From assembly GCF_028641065.1 (NCBI RefSeq), contig NC_073413.1, forward strand, positions 5,456,001 to 5,520,000: DNA of 64,000 bases, written 5' to 3'. The DNA is from Leucoraja erinacea. Taxonomy: Eukaryota. Positions 30,664 to 59,789 of this stretch are shown here, one piece after another; positions within the stretch are counted from its first letter, which is position 1; each line of letters starts with the position of its first letter. The position numbers and the translations under genes were made by a program. The notes beneath the pieces were generated by a model that worked only from the letters and a program-made list of their open reading frames with translations, had not been told where the DNA came from and did no database searches.

Positions 30664-31734
30664 ATGGAAGACGTTGATGTTGGCCAAGTCTCGAAGAGGA
30701 ACTCGACCGCTAACACGTCCCTTCAAAATGAGGAGAACCCAAACCAGGTGCTGGTCACATCGCTGTTGGGGGCCACTCTGGGCACCATGTGCATCTTTGG
30801 TATCGTGGGCAACATCTACACTCTGGTGGTCACCGCCCGGTCGATGAGGTCTACCAGCTCCATGTGTGTCTACATCTCCAACCTGGCCCTGGCCGACCTG
30901 CTCTACCTGTGTACCATACCCTTCGTGGTCTGCACCTACTTTGCCAAGGACTGGTACTTCGAGGAGGTGGGCTGCAGGCTCCTCTTCAGCCTGGACCTGC
31001 TGACCATGCACGCCAGCATCTTCATCCTCACTGTGATGAGCGTGGAGCGGTACCGAGCCGTGGCCTCGCCCCTGGACCCCGGGCGTTCGAAAAGCTGCAG
31101 GAAGGCAGTCGCCGCCCTCGTTTGGCTACTGTCCTGCCTTCTCAGCTTGCCCATGATGATCACCATACATCTACGAGAAAGCCCGGACCCAGCCGGGATC
31201 CCGAAGAGGATCTGCTACACGTCTTGGAAACACGACTCCTACAAGGTCTACCTCACCATTTTATTCAACACCAGCATCTTGGCCCCAGGCCTGATCATCG
31301 GGTATCTGTACGCGCGGCTGGGGCGCGTCTACTGGTTCTCCGGGAGGTTGAATCTCGAGAGGAGGAACGTCAACTTGAAGCAGAAGGTCTTGTACATGAT
31401 CTTCAGCATCATCCTGGCTTACTGGGCCTGCTTTGTGCCGTTCTGGTCGTGGCAGTTGGCTAAGCTGTATCACCGGGGCCCGCTGGGATTGTCGCCGGCC
31501 GCCCACACCTACATCAACTTCTTTGTGACCTGCCTAACCTACAGCAACAGCTGCATCAATCCCTTCCTCTACACCCTGCTCTCCAAGAACTACAAGGAGT
31601 CGGCGGCCCGGCGCAGGAGGGGCTCGGCAGGGCGGGTCATCTTCCGCAGGGCCCCCCGAGGGGGTCCAGGGACCCAGCGCTCAGCTGCACCAAGGGGGGT
31701 CGCCCTCGAAGCAAGAGAGGACGGTGCTCCTTGA
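30664..31734 (+). CDS. UTS2R: Urotensin-II receptor family class A GPCR, 356 aa, single coding exon (subtype not assignable)
   Basis: Seven hydrophobic segments; NLALADLLY, LDLLTMHASIF..SVERY, YWACFVPFW and CLTYSNSCINPFLYTLL parallel recalled UTS2R motifs; N-glycosylation sequons NST/NTS; in-frame TGA at 30646; splice acceptor at 30561-30578. Confidence 0.9.
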   Translation: MEDVDVGQVSKRNSTANTSLQNEENPNQVLVTSLLGATLGTMCIFGIVGNIYTLVVTARSMRSTSSMCVYISNLALADLLYLCTIPFVVCTYFAKDWYFEEVGCRLLFSLDLLTMHASIFILTVMSVERYRAVASPLDPGRSKSCRKAVAALVWLLSCLLSLPMMITIHLRESPDPAGIPKRICYTSWKHDSYKVYLTILFNTSILAPGLIIGYLYARLGRVYWFSGRLNLERRNVNLKQKVLYMIFSIILAYWACFVPFWSWQLAKLYHRGPLGLSPAAHTYINFFVTCLTYSNSCINPFLYTLLSKNYKESAARRRRGSAGRVIFRRAPRGGPGTQRSAAPRGVALEAREDGAP

Positions 31735-33639
31735 TGGGGTCCGTCACCAACCTCAATGGTCCTTCAGTACTGGATTGGGAGAAGTCAGGAGAATGGGGTT
31801 GAGAGGGGAAGTTAATTCAGCCATGATTGAATGGCGGAGTAGACTCGATGGGCTGAATGGCCAAATTCTGCTCCTATGACATGAACTTATGAAAACTTGG
31901 TTAGAGCACCATGTTGCTACATATAATTTTGGTTCCCACCGTTATAAAAGGAGGTGCACAATTAGAGGGGGAGGGCAGTGGTCGGGTGCCTATTTGCATA
32001 CATTGGGTATACAAGCAAAGAATTTAATTGTGCCTTGTCACATGTGACAATAAAATATTCCATTCCACTCTATGCTGACCCCTCTTATTCTCCCCGCATT
32101 TTAAATCAATTTTCCTCACATTCCACCTCTCATCAGGATATCATGCATGCATCAAAGTGAATATTTTGACCCCAGAGTTTTGAAACTTTGGGCAGCTCGG
32201 TGGTACAGCGGTAGAGTTGCAGCCTCAAAGCGCCAGGGTCGCGGGTTCGATCCTGAACCTCGGCTGCTTGCCGTACGGATCTCCCCGTGACGTGCGTGGG
32301 TTTTCTCCGGGAGCCCCGGTTTCCTCCCTCACTCCAAAGCCGAGCAGGTTTGTAGGTTAATTGGCTTGGTGTAAATGTAAATTGGTCCCAGTGTGTGTAG
32401 GGTAGTGTCAGCGTGCGGGGATCACTGGTCAGTGCTGTGTTCGATAAATCACTGGATTCGTACAACAGAGTTTGATTCATTAGTATTTTATTACACTAAG
32501 GCACATAACTCATGTATCCCGAGTACACAGCAGAACATGCCACGGGATGTTTCTGTTCTCGATCTCCGCTGGACATTAAAGTTGCACATTAATAAATTCA
32601 ACTAATTAGAAAATGTGAGATCAAAAAAGTAAGCTCCATCTATTGTTCAATGCTCATATTACACCATGGGGAGCCTAATTCCGTGCTTAGGTCTACTTAA
32701 ACCATATATATTATACCATAGATATATATATATATGACGTGAATATGACTGGAGTTATATATAATTATATTATATAAAAATAATATAATGAATATAATTG
32801 TGAGTGTGTATTTTGAATGAGACTGCCACAGAGTTCCGGCCCCTGAACCTGCCTAATTAATGGATGAGGGTAGTTCCAGTGGGTTTCCCCCCCCCCCCCC
32901 CCCCCCCCCTTTTCTGAATCCCACTGACTGCCAGTGTGCAGAGTGGGGGGCATGGCCTTATTGGGACTGGGGCAGTGCCAGGCTGGGGGGGGGGGGCTAA
33001 GGCTTCTTCCACTGACAGGAAAATGCCTAATCCTAACTCGCACCCCCGTCCAGAGCTGCCCACGGCTGGAGCTGGAGCTGCTTTGGGACCTGCTGCAGGC
33101 TCCGTAAGTGTGGCCCCACAGCGCATCCACCTTGGCCAGCCTGCCCTTCTGGGTCATTGTGGTGATGATGGTGAGGAGCAGCACTGTCCTGCAGCCTCCT
33201 AACATCCAAGGTGACTTGGATAGGCTGGGTGAGTGGGCAAATGCATGGGCAGATGCAGTATAATGTGGATAAATGTGAGGTTATCCACTTTGGTGGCAAA
33301 AACAGGAAAGTAGATTTTTATCTGAATGGTGGCCGATTAGGAAAGGGGGAGATGCAACGAGACCTGGGTGTCATGGTCCACCAGTCATTGAAAGTAGGCA
33401 TGCAGGTGCAGCAGGCAGTGAAGAAGGCGAATGGTATGTTAGCATTCATAGCAAAAGGATTTGAGCAGTGATTGGCATTATCTTTAGTCTTTGGAAACCT
33501 TGTTATTGTTTTGAAGTAACTAGGTTGCAATACTTTTATCCCTTGTGTGTCAACACCGTTGTACCTTGGAAACATTGTTATTGTTTTGATGTCAACGTGC
33601 TTTGATTGGACAATTGCTGCTCGGAAATTTGGAGGTGTG

Positions 33640-33940
33640 TGTGGACTTCGTGTGTGTGTGTCCCTGTGTATGTCTCCCTGCTCCCTGTGTGTGTGTCCCT
33701 GTGTGTGTGTGTCCCTCTGTGTTTGTCTCCCTGTGTGTCCCTCTGTGTTTGTCTCCCTGTGTGCGTGTCCCTGTGTATGTCTCCGTGTGTGTGTGTGTCT
33801 CCCTATGTGTGTGTGTCCCTGTGTATGCGTCTCCCTGTGTGTGTGTGTCTCCCTATGTGTGTGTGTCCCTGTGTATGCGTCTCCCTGTGTGTGTGTCCCT
33901 GTGTGTGTGTGTCCCTGTGTATGTCTCCGTGTGTGTGTCC
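33640..33940. repeat. TG-rich minisatellite (gtgtgtgtccctgt)n
   Basis: Visible directly. Confidence 0.9.
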
Positions 33941-34052
33941 GGATTAGTCTGACAAATTTCTAAAACGCCGTGGATTCTCCCGAGCAACAGATCGCTGCGT
34001 TGTACGATAGAGTCCCAAATACAGACGAGAGAGCGGGCGGGGAAGAGGTTGT

Positions 34053-34088
34053 AGCTCTTTATAGTGGCTCTTAAAAGGGCCTTTGTTG
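34053..34088 (-). terminator. Histone-type 3' processing signal: stem-loop plus HDE-like motif
   Basis: Minus strand reads CAACAAA GGCCCT TTTA AGAGCC ACTAT AAAGAGCT; fits GGYYYU-UYUH-ARRRCC with one C.A mismatch; the HDE is closer to the stem than usual. Confidence 0.6.
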
Positions 34089-34669
34089 GACGGAGTGAAA
34101 TGGAGACAAGAATGGAGTCTTGAAGAGCCACGATCCATTCCCTCCACAGATGCTGCCTGACCCGCTCAGTTTCTCCAGCTGTTTTTTTTCCCGACCGAGG
34201 AGATTGAACCTCACCGAAGCGCAAGATCTCGGTCGCGGTCTCCCTCCCACGCCATCGTCTTCAAGGCTGATGGCAGAGTGGTCCAGTGGCGATGGGTCAC
34301 CTAGGGGCCAACCTGACCTGCAGGTGTTTGTGCGTAGCTGGACTTGCGGGGGCTGAGCGCCGGTGAGTGAGTGAGTGTAACCGCGAACACCATCAATGGA
34401 GCAGAATGACACAAGAAAGAGACCTCACACTCGCCCCTCAAGGGGACCCGACCCGTGGGTCAGCGGCCCATCAGAAGATATTTTATTCAACTGCGGGAGA
34501 GGGGCGATGTCTTTCACCTTGACCCTTGGTCGTGTCCGGAACGCAAATCCGGTCCGGCCGATGAAGCCTCGCTGACCAGTGGGTTGACCAGAGCGATGGA
34601 CTGTGCGCCGCTGTCCACTCGGGGCGGGTTCGCGCGTCGAGGTTCCTCTCCGGCCATTCACCCGCGGAC

Positions 34670-34860
34670 ACTGCAATCACTGGACTGCAGCGCCGCCTTT
34701 TATAGACCCCGCCCTGTCCCGCCCCCCCTCGCTGACCATTGGATCTCGCTCCGGCCACAGCGTTGGGCCATGGGTGGGCAGCCCCTCCGATTGGCGGAGG
34801 CCGCTGTCCGTCTGCGCGAAACCCGCCAAACTTCAGCGCCAGGGAAAGTTGGCGGGAAGC
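34670..34860 (-). promoter_or_regulatory. CpG-rich promoter pointing left: TATA, 2 GC boxes, 2 CCAAT, 3 E2F-like sites
   Basis: CTATAAAA (34698-34705, -), GC boxes 34707-34725, CCAAT at 34738-34742 and 34790-34794, TTTCGCGC (34814-34821, -), TTTGGCGGG (34822-34830, -), TTGGCGGGAA (34849-34858). Confidence 0.7.
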
Positions 34861-35040
34861 GATTGTCCGCTCGCTCCGGCCACGACCCCGGGGCACTGGC
34901 GCCAAGTCCGACACTGAGGGAGAGACTTGAGGATGATGTTAGGCTGTGGGCCAAGCATCAAAAATGTGTCTAGAATTTACCTTTCGTGACCCATGTCTGG
35001 GAACTACTTGAAACTTTGCACAGATTTAGATAAAATATAA

Positions 35041-50389: not shown

Positions 50390-52342
50390 ATGGCCATGTC
50401 GGGGGATATTACGGATCAGATACAAAATGATCTATTAAACTGCAAGATCTGCCTCAGTAGGTTCATACAGCCCAAGATGCTGCCTTGTGCTCACACCTAC
50501 TGCCAGGGGTGCCTGGAGAAGATGGTTAGGTCAGACCGGAAGGTGCAGTGCCCGGAGTGCAGGGAAGAGTTTGACGTGAGAGGTGGGGTCAGCAAACTCA
50601 AGACCAACTTTCACATTAACAGTCTGATGGATATCATCAAGAGCAAGGAGAATGAGAAGGTGGTCTGCAGTTGGTGCGCGACAGCTGGTCTCAGCGAGAT
50701 TGCCGCCGTGGCTCGGTGTAAAACCTGCCTCAAGTGCCTCTGCCCGCCTTGCAAGCTCACCCATGGGACTGCCAACCCGCGCCACGTGCTGGAGGATCTG
50801 CCCGGTTACGTCGCCGGCCCTTGCGAGGCAGAGACAAAGATGCAGAAGATGATCTACTGCCAGGGCCACCCAGGAACCCTGGTGGACCATCTCTGCAACA
50901 CCTGCAACAGCGTGATCTGCAGCAGTTGTTCCTCGCATGCCCACGCCAGGCACTCGAAGGTGTCCCTGGCCAACGCAGGGGCCACAGCTAGACCCACGGT
51001 GATGAATCTCATGGAGAGACTGAAGACTGACATGCAGTCGCTGGTCCAACAGGAAGACGACATCGTCCAGGCAATGGAGGGGATGAAGGCGACGGAAAGA
51101 TCACTGATGTCTATGATAGAGTCCACCCTGGCCGAGGTCATAAACAACTTGATAAAACATGGCGACACCATCAAGGACACGCTCTCCAGTTACGTCAGGG
51201 AGCAGGAAGAATTGTACAAGGTCGCGCGGGATGATATTCAGCTCAAGATCAAGAAGGCGAAGGACACCAGGGAATTTTCCCAGGGGGTCCTGGGTTCCGG
51301 TAAAATGAGGGAAATAGTCTGCCTGCGGTCCGTCGTGGAAGAACAGATCGATGGACTCCAAGCGCCGAGGGTCCCGGACGACAAGAAGACCCGCCCCAGC
51401 CTGACCGTCAACGAGTCGCTCAAGAGCATGCTGTCTCACTCCAACCTTTTCAGCCTCACCTTCGGTGAAGAATCGGCCGCCAAGGCAGTGGCCGTTCCAG
51501 CAAAAAGCCCGCAGGCCTACACTCCCCTCCCCCAACCCAGGCAGAGGGCGTGGAATCTACATTGGTTCAACACAGAGCTGGGTGGTGACCAGTACGATCC
51601 GGCGCTGACGGGCGTTAGCGTCTCCAACGACGGCATCATCGTGGTGGCGGACGAAGACAATTCCCTTCTGAAATGCTTCACCGACGACGGGCACCTCACT
51701 GCGACCATCTCACTGCCGGACAATAACGCACATCCATGCAGTGTTGCCATCTTTGACGACACCATCGCCTGCTCGTCTGGGAACCGGCTGTACATGCTGG
51801 ACATGGACGGGACTTTGCTGAGGAAGCTTTTCCTCCGCGGCTACGAGTCCGTCTACCCCCTCGCCGCCTACAGGGATGAATACGTGGCTGTGAGTGAGGG
51901 GTCCATGTGCTCCCTCTCCCTGTACAACAGCAACGGGCAGGTGGTCGACAGGGTGAAGCCGTACGGCTACGAGGGGGGGCGGTTCCTCTTCCTCGCCATC
52001 AACAGCGACGAGCAGTTCATCGTGGTCGACTGCGGCAAGAAGTGCATCCTGATCTTCGACAGGGATGGCTACATCTTCACCACCTGTGACCAGGTCACCA
52101 TGAACGGGGTGGGTCAGGCGATCTGTCCCTACAGCATCTGCACGGACAAAGACGACAATATTATGGTCACCGAGTGGAACCGGATCCTCTTGTTTTGGCC
52201 CAACGGGAACTTCAGGGAGGAGCTGCTGACCGTCGCCAACGGCCTTCACAAACCACGTGTCATCACCGTCGACAATTACAACAACCTGGTCGTCACCCAA
52301 GGCAACGGGTTCATCACCATATACCAGCTGGACCTCTCTTAG
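50390..52342 (+). CDS. TRIM56: TRIM56-like E3 ubiquitin ligase, copy 1 (RING, B-box1, B-box2, coiled coil, NHL beta-propeller; 650 aa)
   Basis: C3HC4 RING (CKIC..PKMLPCAHTYCQGC..CPECR), two B-boxes, helical region, NHL-like repeats (IVVADEDN, FIVVDCGK, KPRVITVD); no filamin domain; single coding exon, like TRIM56. Orthology not proven. Confidence 0.85.
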   Translation: MAMSGDITDQIQNDLLNCKICLSRFIQPKMLPCAHTYCQGCLEKMVRSDRKVQCPECREEFDVRGGVSKLKTNFHINSLMDIIKSKENEKVVCSWCATAGLSEIAAVARCKTCLKCLCPPCKLTHGTANPRHVLEDLPGYVAGPCEAETKMQKMIYCQGHPGTLVDHLCNTCNSVICSSCSSHAHARHSKVSLANAGATARPTVMNLMERLKTDMQSLVQQEDDIVQAMEGMKATERSLMSMIESTLAEVINNLIKHGDTIKDTLSSYVREQEELYKVARDDIQLKIKKAKDTREFSQGVLGSGKMREIVCLRSVVEEQIDGLQAPRVPDDKKTRPSLTVNESLKSMLSHSNLFSLTFGEESAAKAVAVPAKSPQAYTPLPQPRQRAWNLHWFNTELGGDQYDPALTGVSVSNDGIIVVADEDNSLLKCFTDDGHLTATISLPDNNAHPCSVAIFDDTIACSSGNRLYMLDMDGTLLRKLFLRGYESVYPLAAYRDEYVAVSEGSMCSLSLYNSNGQVVDRVKPYGYEGGRFLFLAINSDEQFIVVDCGKKCILIFDRDGYIFTTCDQVTMNGVGQAICPYSICTDKDDNIMVTEWNRILLFWPNGNFREELLTVANGLHKPRVITVDNYNNLVVTQGNGFITIYQLDLS

Positions 52343-57812: not shown

Positions 57813-59789
57813 ATGGCCATGTCGGGGGATATTACGGATCAGATACAAAACGATCTATTAAACTGCAAGATCTGCCTCAGTAGGTTCATACAGCCCAAGA
57901 TGCTGCCTTGTGCCCACACCTACTGCCAGGGGTGCCTGGAGAAGATGGTTAGGTCAGACCGGAAGGTGCAGTGCCCGGAGTGCAGGGAAGTGTTTGACGT
58001 GAGAGGTGGCGTCAGCAAACTCAAGACCAACTTTCACATCAACAGTCTGATGGATATCATCAAGAGCAAGGAGAATGAGAAGGTGGTCTGCAGTTGGTGC
58101 GCAACTACTGGTCGCCGTGAGACTCCCGCCGTGGCTCGGTGTAAAACCTGCCTCAAGTGCCTCTGCCCGCCTTGCAAGCTCACCCACGGGACTGCCAACC
58201 CACGCCACGTGCTGGAGGATCTGCCCGGTCACATCGCCGGCCCTTGCGAGGCAGAGACAAAGATGCAGAAGATGATCTACTGCCAGGGCCACCCAGGAAA
58301 CCTGGTGGACCATCTCTGCAACACTTGCAACAGCGTGATCTGCAGCAGTTGTTCCTCACACGCCCACGCCAGGCACTCGAAGGTGTCCCTGGCCAAGGCA
58401 GGGGCCACAGCTAGACCCACGGTGATGAATCTCATGGAGAGACTGAAGACTGACACGCAGTCGCTGGTCCAACAGGAAGACGACATCGTCCAGGCAATGG
58501 AGGGGATGAAGGCGACGGAAAGATCTCTGATGTCTATGATAGAGTCCACCCTGGCCGAGGTCATAAACAACTTGATAAAACAGGGCGACACCATCAAGGA
58601 AACGCTCTCCAGTTACGTCAGGGAGCAGGAAGAATTGTACAAGGTCGCGCGGGATGATATTCAGCTCAAGATCAAGAAGGCGAAGGACACCAGGGAATTT
58701 TCCCAGGGGGTCCTGGGTTCCAGTAAAATGAGGGAAATAGTCTGCCTGCGGTCCGTCGTGGAAGAACAGATCGATGGACTCCAAGCACCGAGGGTCCCGG
58801 ACGACAAGAAGACCCGCCCCAGCCTGACCGTCAACGAGTCGCTCAAGAGCATGCTGTCTCATTCCAACCTTTTCAGCATCACCTTCGGTGAAGAATCGGC
58901 CGCCAAGGCACTGGCCGCTCCAGCGAAAAGCAAGCCGCGCAAGAGCCCGACGAAAAGCCCACTGGCCTACACTCCCCACCCCCAACCCAGGCAGAGGACG
59001 TGGAATCTACATTGCTTCAACACGTTGCTGGGTGGTGAATTGTGTGATCCGAACCTGACGGGCGTCAGCGTCTCCAGCGACGGCATCATCGTGGTGGCAG
59101 ACCAAGAAAATTCCCTTCTGAAATGCTTCACCGACGACGGGCACATCACCGCGACCATCTCACTGCCGGACGATGACGAACCATGCAGTGTTGCCATCTT
59201 TGATGGCACCATCGCCTGCTCGTCTGGAAACCGGTTGTACATGTTGGACATGGACGGGACCAAGCAGAAGAAGCTCTTGCTCCGTGGCTCCGAATCCATC
59301 TACCACCTCGCCGCCTACAGGGATGAATACGTGGCGGTGAGCGAGGGCTCCATGTGCTCCCTCTCCCTGTACGACATCAACGGGAAGATGGTCAAAAGAG
59401 TGAAGCCGTGCGGCTACGAGGGGGCGCGCTTCCTCTTCCTCGCCATCAACAGCGACGAGCAGTTCATCGTGGCCGACTACGGCAAGAAGTGCATCCTGAT
59501 CTTCGACAGGGATGGCTGCGTCTTCACCACCTGTAACCAGGTCACCATGAACGGGATGGGTCAGGCGATCTGTCCCTACAGCATCTGCACGGACAAAGAC
59601 GACAATATTATGGTCACCGAGTGGAACCGGATCCTCTTGTTTTGGCCCAGCGGGAACTTCAGGGAGGAGCTGCTGACCGTCGCCAACGGCCTTCACAAAC
59701 CACGCGTCATCACCGTCGACAATTGCAACAACCTGGTCGTCACCCAAGGCAACGGATGCATCACCGTGTACCAGCTGGACCTCTCTTAG
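57813..59789 (+). CDS. TRIM56: TRIM56-like E3 ubiquitin ligase, copy 2 (658 aa)
   Basis: Intact ORF, about 90% identical to copy 1 by manual comparison; same acceptor ttgcag|gttgtgtccacatcATG. Confidence 0.85.
   Translation: MAMSGDITDQIQNDLLNCKICLSRFIQPKMLPCAHTYCQGCLEKMVRSDRKVQCPECREVFDVRGGVSKLKTNFHINSLMDIIKSKENEKVVCSWCATTGRRETPAVARCKTCLKCLCPPCKLTHGTANPRHVLEDLPGHIAGPCEAETKMQKMIYCQGHPGNLVDHLCNTCNSVICSSCSSHAHARHSKVSLAKAGATARPTVMNLMERLKTDTQSLVQQEDDIVQAMEGMKATERSLMSMIESTLAEVINNLIKQGDTIKETLSSYVREQEELYKVARDDIQLKIKKAKDTREFSQGVLGSSKMREIVCLRSVVEEQIDGLQAPRVPDDKKTRPSLTVNESLKSMLSHSNLFSITFGEESAAKALAAPAKSKPRKSPTKSPLAYTPHPQPRQRTWNLHCFNTLLGGELCDPNLTGVSVSSDGIIVVADQENSLLKCFTDDGHITATISLPDDDEPCSVAIFDGTIACSSGNRLYMLDMDGTKQKKLLLRGSESIYHLAAYRDEYVAVSEGSMCSLSLYDINGKMVKRVKPCGYEGARFLFLAINSDEQFIVADYGKKCILIFDRDGCVFTTCNQVTMNGMGQAICPYSICTDKDDNIMVTEWNRILLFWPSGNFREELLTVANGLHKPRVITVDNCNNLVVTQGNGCITVYQLDLS

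Follow-up and report, generated by a model that had tools for sequence, protein, structure and literature searches.

Histone sequence located outside the histone clusters is termed an orphon. The pathway in which SLBP and U7 direct 3' end formation has been described for histone mRNAs only; in HeLa cells SLBP bound no RNA outside histone gene models, and human histone pseudogenes were neither expressed nor SLBP-bound (PMC4604434, in its accessible part). The same accessible text describes H2A.X (H2AFX) as having a bimorphic mRNA, with stem-loop and poly(A) options in one unit (PMC4604434). U7 is reported to cut a constant distance away from the downstream element, normally ~5 nt past the stem (PMC7026596, PMC7491329, 10.64898/2026.10.14.759114, as far as their available text goes), and the spacing between stem and element is given as critical in the available part of PMC1635294. 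The G2-C pair and loop U3 are named as diagnostic for the histone stem-loop (10.64898/2026.10.14.759114, available text). Histone-type cleavage is portrayed as a poor transcription terminator through Xrn2 (PMC9744234, accessible part), and U7 is reported to act on LTR12 lincRNAs through HDE-like motifs (10.1101/2023.08.25.554787, accessible part).

The window analysed here is a 64,000-nt stretch of Leucoraja erinacea contig NC_073413.1, to which all positions refer; the unit under study, 33946..34941, is read on its minus strand and is a short-type copy of a dispersed family of H3 relics with at least 31 related genomic places. Like the replication-dependent H3 genes of this genome, the family has a TTTA loop, a CAACAAA flank, a AAAGAGCT core and a CCAAT/TATA-type promoter layout, and in its long copies the stem is likewise preceded by the final H3 codons and the 3' UTR. 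Unlike those genes, it has no histone ORF, carries a C.A mismatch and a spacer of 5-8 instead of 16 nt, contains H3 relics only and is dispersed away from the histone clusters. The window unit is not a replication-dependent histone gene, since an intact ORF, a six-pair stem and normal spacing are all missing. By descent, the family consists of H3 pseudogenes with a disabled ORF, and as decayed histone coding sequence outside the clusters it resembles histone pseudogenes and orphons; yet neutral decay does not appear to hold at its ends, and unlike histone pseudogenes it comprises ~30 copies with a common architecture and slow-changing promoter and end signals. Long copies resemble hairpin endo-siRNA loci and piRNA clusters in that a single promoter is followed by a predicted hairpin and numerous retroelement fragments, but their arms are unconstrained and the window copy is without either arm; we know of no histone-type end at such loci or clusters. 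The family unit combines stem-loop and poly(A) signal as H2A.X does, but in H2A.X the stem-loop is upstream of the poly(A) end and a histone is coded, whereas here the AATAAA is upstream and nothing is coded. Like the U7-repressed LTR12 lincRNAs, as far as the available account of them goes, it is a non-histone unit with CCAAT boxes and a U7-type motif; unlike these retroviral LTRs with at least two HDE-like motifs, it is H3-descended and has kept a stem-loop. No description of this H3-relic family was found in a literature search with most subscription papers outside its coverage.

The promoter of the window unit (34698..34890) is a CpG island with three E2F-like sites (34858-34851, 34830-34823 and 34821-34814), two CCAAT boxes (34794-34790 and 34742-34738), two GGGCGG GC boxes (34724-34719 and 34714-34709) and the TATA box CTATAAAA (34705-34698), all on the minus strand; the CpG o/e of the region is 0.83-0.92 and its GC content 0.61-0.63. 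It is followed by block 1 (34482..34690), a decayed H3 coding relic according to the H3 z scores of sister copies, which contains an ORF of 47 codons (34514..34657, ATG at 34657) and ends in a conserved AATAAA (34487-34482). Block 2 (34190..34423) is shared family sequence of weak H3 likeness (z 0.3-3.2 in the copies having the block). A fragment of a very high-copy repeat, which we take to be a Penelope-type tail, occupies 34116..34180, with a read-depth peak at 34135-34204 in all 4 sequencing runs; the piece at 34133-34179 is very high copy by read depth, which bears out the short repeat insertion originally predicted near 34130-34190. At 34092..34109 lies the deletion junction of the short subfamily, where ~560-590 bp are gone; the same junction is present in the window copy and in two others, L002 and L015, and the long copies retain the deleted segment. 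The H3-derived stem-loop with its 5' AACAAA flank, recognised by the H3 gene profile, spans 34066..34087 (stem-loop proper GGCCCTTTTAAGAGCC, 34081-34066) and has a C4.A13 mismatch. The core of the histone downstream element, AAAGAGCT (34053..34060), begins only 5 nt past the stem, and the shared downstream flank (33946..34052), which leads to a sense H3 relic in long copies, here enters a CA-rich repeat. Thus the E2F-like sites, the CCAAT, GC and TATA boxes, the stem-loop and the downstream element were all found where the original prediction had placed them on the minus strand.

No tRNA was found in the 64-kb window, and nothing in it reached the Rfam gathering score. An intronless rhodopsin-family GPCR (Pfam 7tm_1), presumably urotensin-receptor-like, lies on the plus strand at 30664-31734, 2.3 kb downstream, and converges on the unit, so that read-through would be antisense to it. 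Two similar intronless ORFs of the RING, B-box, NHL (TRIM-NHL) type, of 650 and 658 aa, occur on the plus strand at 50390-52342 and 57813-59789, the domain scan covering the first (50390-52342). Exon-like, partly N-masked peptides at ~4100-4290 and 14291-14368 (plus strand) resemble, we presume, ArfGAP with dual PH domains (ADAP).

The stem-loop pattern (at most 1 mismatch) occurred once in the window and in none of 200 block-shuffled windows. Scoring with the Rfam Histone3 model, as had been proposed, gave a match at 34086-34041 of 20.5 bits (E 0.012), below the gathering score of 34 and compared with 35-40 bits for genuine histone ends of the same genome; against the H3 gene profile, the E value of the window 3' end was 0.0011. 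The stem forms five of six pairs, with a predicted energy of -3.1 kcal/mol vs -7.9 for a real H3 stem, and its folding within the window RNA is predicted, with values of 0.76-0.99 for the outer pairs. As a whole, this RNA showed no special folding (z -0.57). A stretch of nine nucleotides at 34123-34131 (minus strand) could base-pair either with the downstream element or with the stem-loop's 3' arm, and may act as a competitor; this pairing is not seen in the predicted L002 fold. Both the G2-C pair and loop U3 are present, and AAAGAGCT is the same core as in most H3 genes of this genome and is purine-rich, as such an element should be. The spacer between stem and element is 5 nt in the window and 5 or 8 nt in the family, vs 16 nt in 24 of the 26 intact H3 genes. 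Both weaknesses that had been pointed out, the stem mismatch and the short spacing, are ancestral to the family. The mismatched 21-mer was found exactly in 35 of the 100 places listed (108 stem-loop matches), nearly all adjoining family loci, and the histone clusters of this genome carry the perfectly paired form. An Rfam family search together with two patterns gave no credible U7 gene of this species.

Histone-type stem-loops were also seen in other settings. Two broken DDE_Tnp_4 transposase genes, which we take to be of Harbinger/PIF type, were found at L021 (G000:C3:45574345, minus strand) and L027 (G000:C25:7617264, plus strand), at locus position ~1500, and in both a perfect histone stem-loop lies ~80 nt past the transposase stop, that of L027 scoring 34.3 bits, above the Rfam cut-off; a literature search returned nothing on DDE_Tnp_4 transposase genes with a histone stem-loop. 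At L128 (G000:C31:27236001-27246000) and in the 1.67-kb tandem arrays that lie at C31:27.24 and 27.31 Mb, a second hairpin, GGTCAT TTTA ATGGCC, is present in every array unit; it has six pairs, one of them G.U, and five changes from the H3 form; a downstream element follows 6 nt later, the hairpin stands behind another H3 relic, and a decayed form is present at C34. Divergent H2B gene pairs on opposite strands, with a G.U-containing stem-loop and a promoter type of their own, are located at L086 and L087 (G000:C373 and C1196).

The unit had been regarded as an orphan, but it is multi-copy. A search with promoter and body (34200-34920) gave 36 matches, which correspond to at least 31 places, many near full length and of 70-81% identity. 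This copy number is not that of a high-copy transposon, only the 34133-34179 piece being very high copy. Of the copies, that in the window has diverged most, with 81-86% ungapped identity to 15 others; its closest relative, L002, is 76.8% identical over 33636-34941, the likeness continuing through the CA repeat to 33636. Two DNA-like sequencing runs labelled as different organisms also contain family sequence, some pieces of it 93-98% like the window copy. The copies crowd towards contig ends: 21 of the 29 listed places on large contigs are within 1.5 Mb of an end vs ~4 expected. In the 12 regions mapped, long copies follow one plan with variations: the promoter is followed by block 1, block 2, the repeat tail, segment B and a first stem-loop, after which come an inverted B', several kb of LINE fragments, a further B and, ~8-17 kb from the promoter, a second stem-loop. 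The promoter-proximal end signal of long copies is decayed and the distal one intact. The window copy, L002 and L015 have lost the antisense H3 relic (B), a spacer and the last H3 codons, and are also without B'. The inverted repeat of long copies, absent from the window copy, is predicted to form a hairpin of 250-340 bp (-490 and -518 kcal/mol vs ~-243 and -272 in 8 shuffles each). In 14 of 20 copies the Penelope-type tail has the same location, and it is thus older than the spread of the family; Penelope, CR1, RTE and Rex1 are the class labels that we presume for the family's repeat fragments. Across the 12 regions, whose copies are non-independent, all but 3 of the CR1-type RT fragments share the strand of the promoter, and other fragments are antisense. 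With copy ends judged by blast coverage, spread by DNA-level duplication is favoured, because promoter and downstream flank were copied along. In the family linker and at the end of block 2, 15 of 16 copies have a 5' splice-site-like GGTGAGT and 8 of 16 a CGGTAAG, neither of which is present in the window copy. Outside the family plan, a B-type H3 relic without promoter is present at L082-L085 (G000:C1603, C1593 and C1713), most adjoining a short-period tandem repeat, and short pieces of their flanks also match window 33472-33636.

The origin of the family was traced with intact histone genes from the same genome as queries. In 13 regions, nhmmer gave 71 matches to H3 and none to nine H4, H2A, H2B and H1 queries; B is an antisense and B' a sense H3 coding relic (lowest E 6e-13), and long copies have kept the final H3 codons and the 3' UTR ahead of the stem-loop. 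When block 1 was compared with H3 in sense orientation, 13 of the 18 copies, L010 and L015 being omitted, reached z 2.9-6.7, and other histones at most z 2.3; the deletion-tolerant (asymmetric) scoring used here was picked after other schemes had given no clear H3 signal for this block. The body of the window copy alone is not significant (z 1.1), so that its H3 origin rests on the sister copies. Permissive scoring had hinted at H2A for the body (z 1.8-3.6), an origin that was rejected because stricter scoring and nhmmer did not reproduce the signal. No source was traced for block 2 or the promoter, the 5' region profile against 12 histone genes giving a best E of 0.72, and no significant match spoke for descent of the promoter from that of H3 or another histone. 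Sequence comparison thus establishes that the relics and the 3' end of the family descend from H3 genes. The original prediction of a histone-gene shell with a replaced coding part was right as to the histone (H3) origin, but the H3 relics in the copies show that the coding part decayed rather than being replaced. High germline mutability of histone genes has been reported in the available text of 10.64898/2026.06.11.731563 and may bear on the heavy decay of the relics.

No histone peptide was found in any frame of the unit by six-frame translation or tblastn, and there was no significant Pfam match, in agreement with what had been noted for the minus frames. The 47-codon ORF is present but not, as had been thought, alone, since stop-free minus frames without a leading ATG run to 83, 117 and 151 codons. 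Of 19 copies, 8 have its ATG, and the reading frames differ from copy to copy; all 12 frame tests, which took in block 1 and block 2, gave a pN/pS of 0.71-1.48, which indicates no coding constraint, and most indels shift the frame (0 of 10 and 5 of 20 are divisible by 3). The 206-aa frame of a sister copy had two matches among 1.84 billion protein representatives, both repetitive singletons summed from weak stretches. A micropeptide or other coding frame was therefore rejected on the unconserved ATG, the diverging frames and a pN/pS near 1, and comparison of the copies establishes a family without a conserved reading frame; of the proposed non-histone RNA or micropeptide gene, only the non-coding RNA survives, on the strength of the slow-changing ends.

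The ends of the unit behave differently from its body. On a tree of 16 copies, from which L017-L019 were omitted, the two CCAAT boxes and the TATA box had no change and a GC box had one, i.e., 1 change in 27 columns, compared with a promoter background of 0.64 changes per non-CpG column; the E2F-like TTTGGCG is poorly conserved (6 changes). The AATAAA was present in 16 of 16 copies without change. CpG decay was 4-6% in the promoter, block 1 and block 2 vs 17-27% farther downstream, as would be expected of a promoter unmethylated in the germline. Compared with the family majority, the window copy differed at 0 of 57 signal positions and elsewhere at 17 of 159, 15 of 123 and 79 of 478 positions (11-17%), the first count being biased by the choice of the window copy for its intact motifs.

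For the 3' end, 50 modules were gathered with the flank as guide, some of them overlooked by the exact pattern, and the best 40 of 79 candidates were scored. Within this sample, the 16-nt stem-loop was unchanged in 36 of the 38 modules with a downstream element (L133 counted among them) vs 1 of the 12 without, and the modules that the exact pattern had missed mostly had an intact stem. By parsimony, among the best 40 of 79 candidates scored, a single change in 22 columns was counted for 33 distinct element-bearing modules, where 11.4 were expected, and 8 changes in 16 columns for 8 element-less modules, where 4.1 were expected; addition of L133 raised the former to 3 changes vs 11.4 expected (P 0.004), and the contrast with the element-less modules had a Fisher P of 0.03 after removal of one of their 8 stem changes, which is a product of the deletion itself. 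The 33-module test omits three C34 modules, whose stem is decayed, as well as L133, the window copy, L002 and L015. The change in L133 merely shifts the position of the stem mismatch; L132, 7 kb downstream of a copy without the CCAAT/TATA core, has the only stem-breaking change with the element kept. The Poisson P values presume even rates, most element-less modules belong to one clade, recent duplicates are numerous among the element-bearing ones, and a flank rate of 1.43 was left unused as inflated by non-homologous flanks. Invariant non-CpG runs reach 18 columns in the flank vs 24 at the stem-loop. Owing to the uneven site rates and this invariant flank run, the evidence for constraint is ranked as moderate only, and with that moderate weight the promoter boxes and the stem-loop appear to deviate from neutral pseudogene decay. 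The hairpin arms and their best H3-matching block showed no constraint; selection on the 29-nt block matching H3 mRNA, the idea of an anti-H3 small RNA, was rejected (22 changes vs 18 expected).

The explanation that we favour, tentatively and with somewhat less than even confidence, is that ~30 H3-pseudogene-derived loci are non-coding Pol II units, likely ended by SLBP/U7 via an abnormal signal. The promoter and 3' signals change much more slowly than the flanks, which suggests that the units are transcribed by Pol II and ended in this way, and because loss of the element is followed by decay of the stem, stem-loop and element would act as a single end signal. The CpG-island promoter with its CCAAT, GC and TATA boxes would produce an RNA of ~610 nt here and of ~8-17 kb in long copies. 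Since the element is 11 nt closer than in H3, the U7 ruler predicts either cleavage between 34072 and 34071, within the weakened stem, or inefficient processing. Shortening is reportedly, by the title of Cho et al. 1995, something that interferes with processing. The product would be an unstable non-polyadenylated RNA, the signal serving mainly as a terminator. In long copies, transcription would read through the decayed first signal and over the H3 hairpin and retroelement scraps to the intact distal signal, a cargo that the window copy has lost. A small-RNA role for these hairpins is only a possibility, because the arms and the best H3-matching block are unconstrained and the window copy has no arms. 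Counted against the SLBP/U7 explanation are the poor termination through Xrn2, the histone-only SLBP binding in HeLa, the weak stem and the short spacer. In two sequencing runs guessed as RNA (X5 and X6), repeat pieces only were covered (5 of 30 bins), a result that speaks neither for nor against transcription.

It is possible, if doubtful, that the family is inert: an H3-only pseudogene array spread by subtelomeric segmental duplication, with leftover motifs and a passive CpG island, the apparent constraint arising from rate variation, recent duplication and the manner of finding copies. H3 relics throughout the family, the crowding of listed places towards contig ends, the ancestral mismatch and short spacer, the unconstrained hairpin arms and H3-matching block, and the long invariant runs in the flank all fit such a fossil. 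However, stem-loop decay goes along with absence of the element and, in one case, with that of the promoter; the modules fetched by flank despite missing the exact pattern mostly have an intact stem (best 40 of 79 scored); and the CCAAT, GC and TATA boxes change far less than the remaining promoter. The decayed histone CDS envisaged as the counter-case was thus found, as H3 coding relics in the copies, but an ordinary inert pseudogene leaves the slow change of promoter and stem-loop unexplained, so the non-coding RNA reading survives.

Three further readings accept some use of the signals. An uncut nascent RNA might hold SLBP and U7 or tether the locus to histone locus bodies, or U7 might dampen the CCAAT promoter; retention of both elements despite wrong spacing, conserved CCAAT boxes and reported U7 repression via HDE-like motifs and NF-Y (10.1101/2023.08.25.554787, accessible part) agree with such a decoy or repression site, but the mechanism as given in that accessible part uses at least two motifs and requires no stem-loop, and the signal of long copies, which lies ~8-17 kb away from the promoter, is better explained as an end signal, so that we consider this improbable. 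Normal histone-type processing to a stable S-phase non-coding RNA ending ~5 nt past the stem, near 34061, appears quite improbable: the two arms of the stem, its loop and the 5' flank show conservation, with G2-C and loop U3 intact, but the downstream core begins right at that cut site, and the available text of PMC7026596 and PMC7491329 has cleavage a constant distance away from the element. A normal U7 end near 34061 is accordingly doubtful, because the spacer is 5 and not 16 nt. Highly improbable is a short polyadenylated RNA or micropeptide gene ending past the AATAAA at 34487, to which the stem-loop would be incidental; the invariant AATAAA and the ATG of the window copy speak for it, but the scarcity of that ATG among the copies, the differing frames, the pN/pS near 1 and the want of a credible relative of the sister 206-aa frame among the protein representatives searched speak against it.

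Even if inert, the family would remain unusual as a pseudogene duplicon made up of H3 only and scattered close to small-chromosome ends. The wider proposition, which we regard as conceivable though rather unlikely, is that a cartilaginous-fish lineage turned dead H3 genes into ~30 SLBP/U7-ended non-coding RNA genes with RNAs of 0.6 to ~17 kb, the long ones folding into H3 hairpins with retroelement scraps that could feed small-RNA pathways. If this is true, the family would be a natural non-histone substrate family of the vertebrate U7 pathway, and its copies, with spacers of 5 vs 8 nt, the element kept or lost and the promoter kept or lost, would offer natural variants for the U7 ruler in vivo. 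A non-coding family that keeps the stem-loop and the element in a geometry likely to disturb cleavage would widen the SLBP/U7 pathway.
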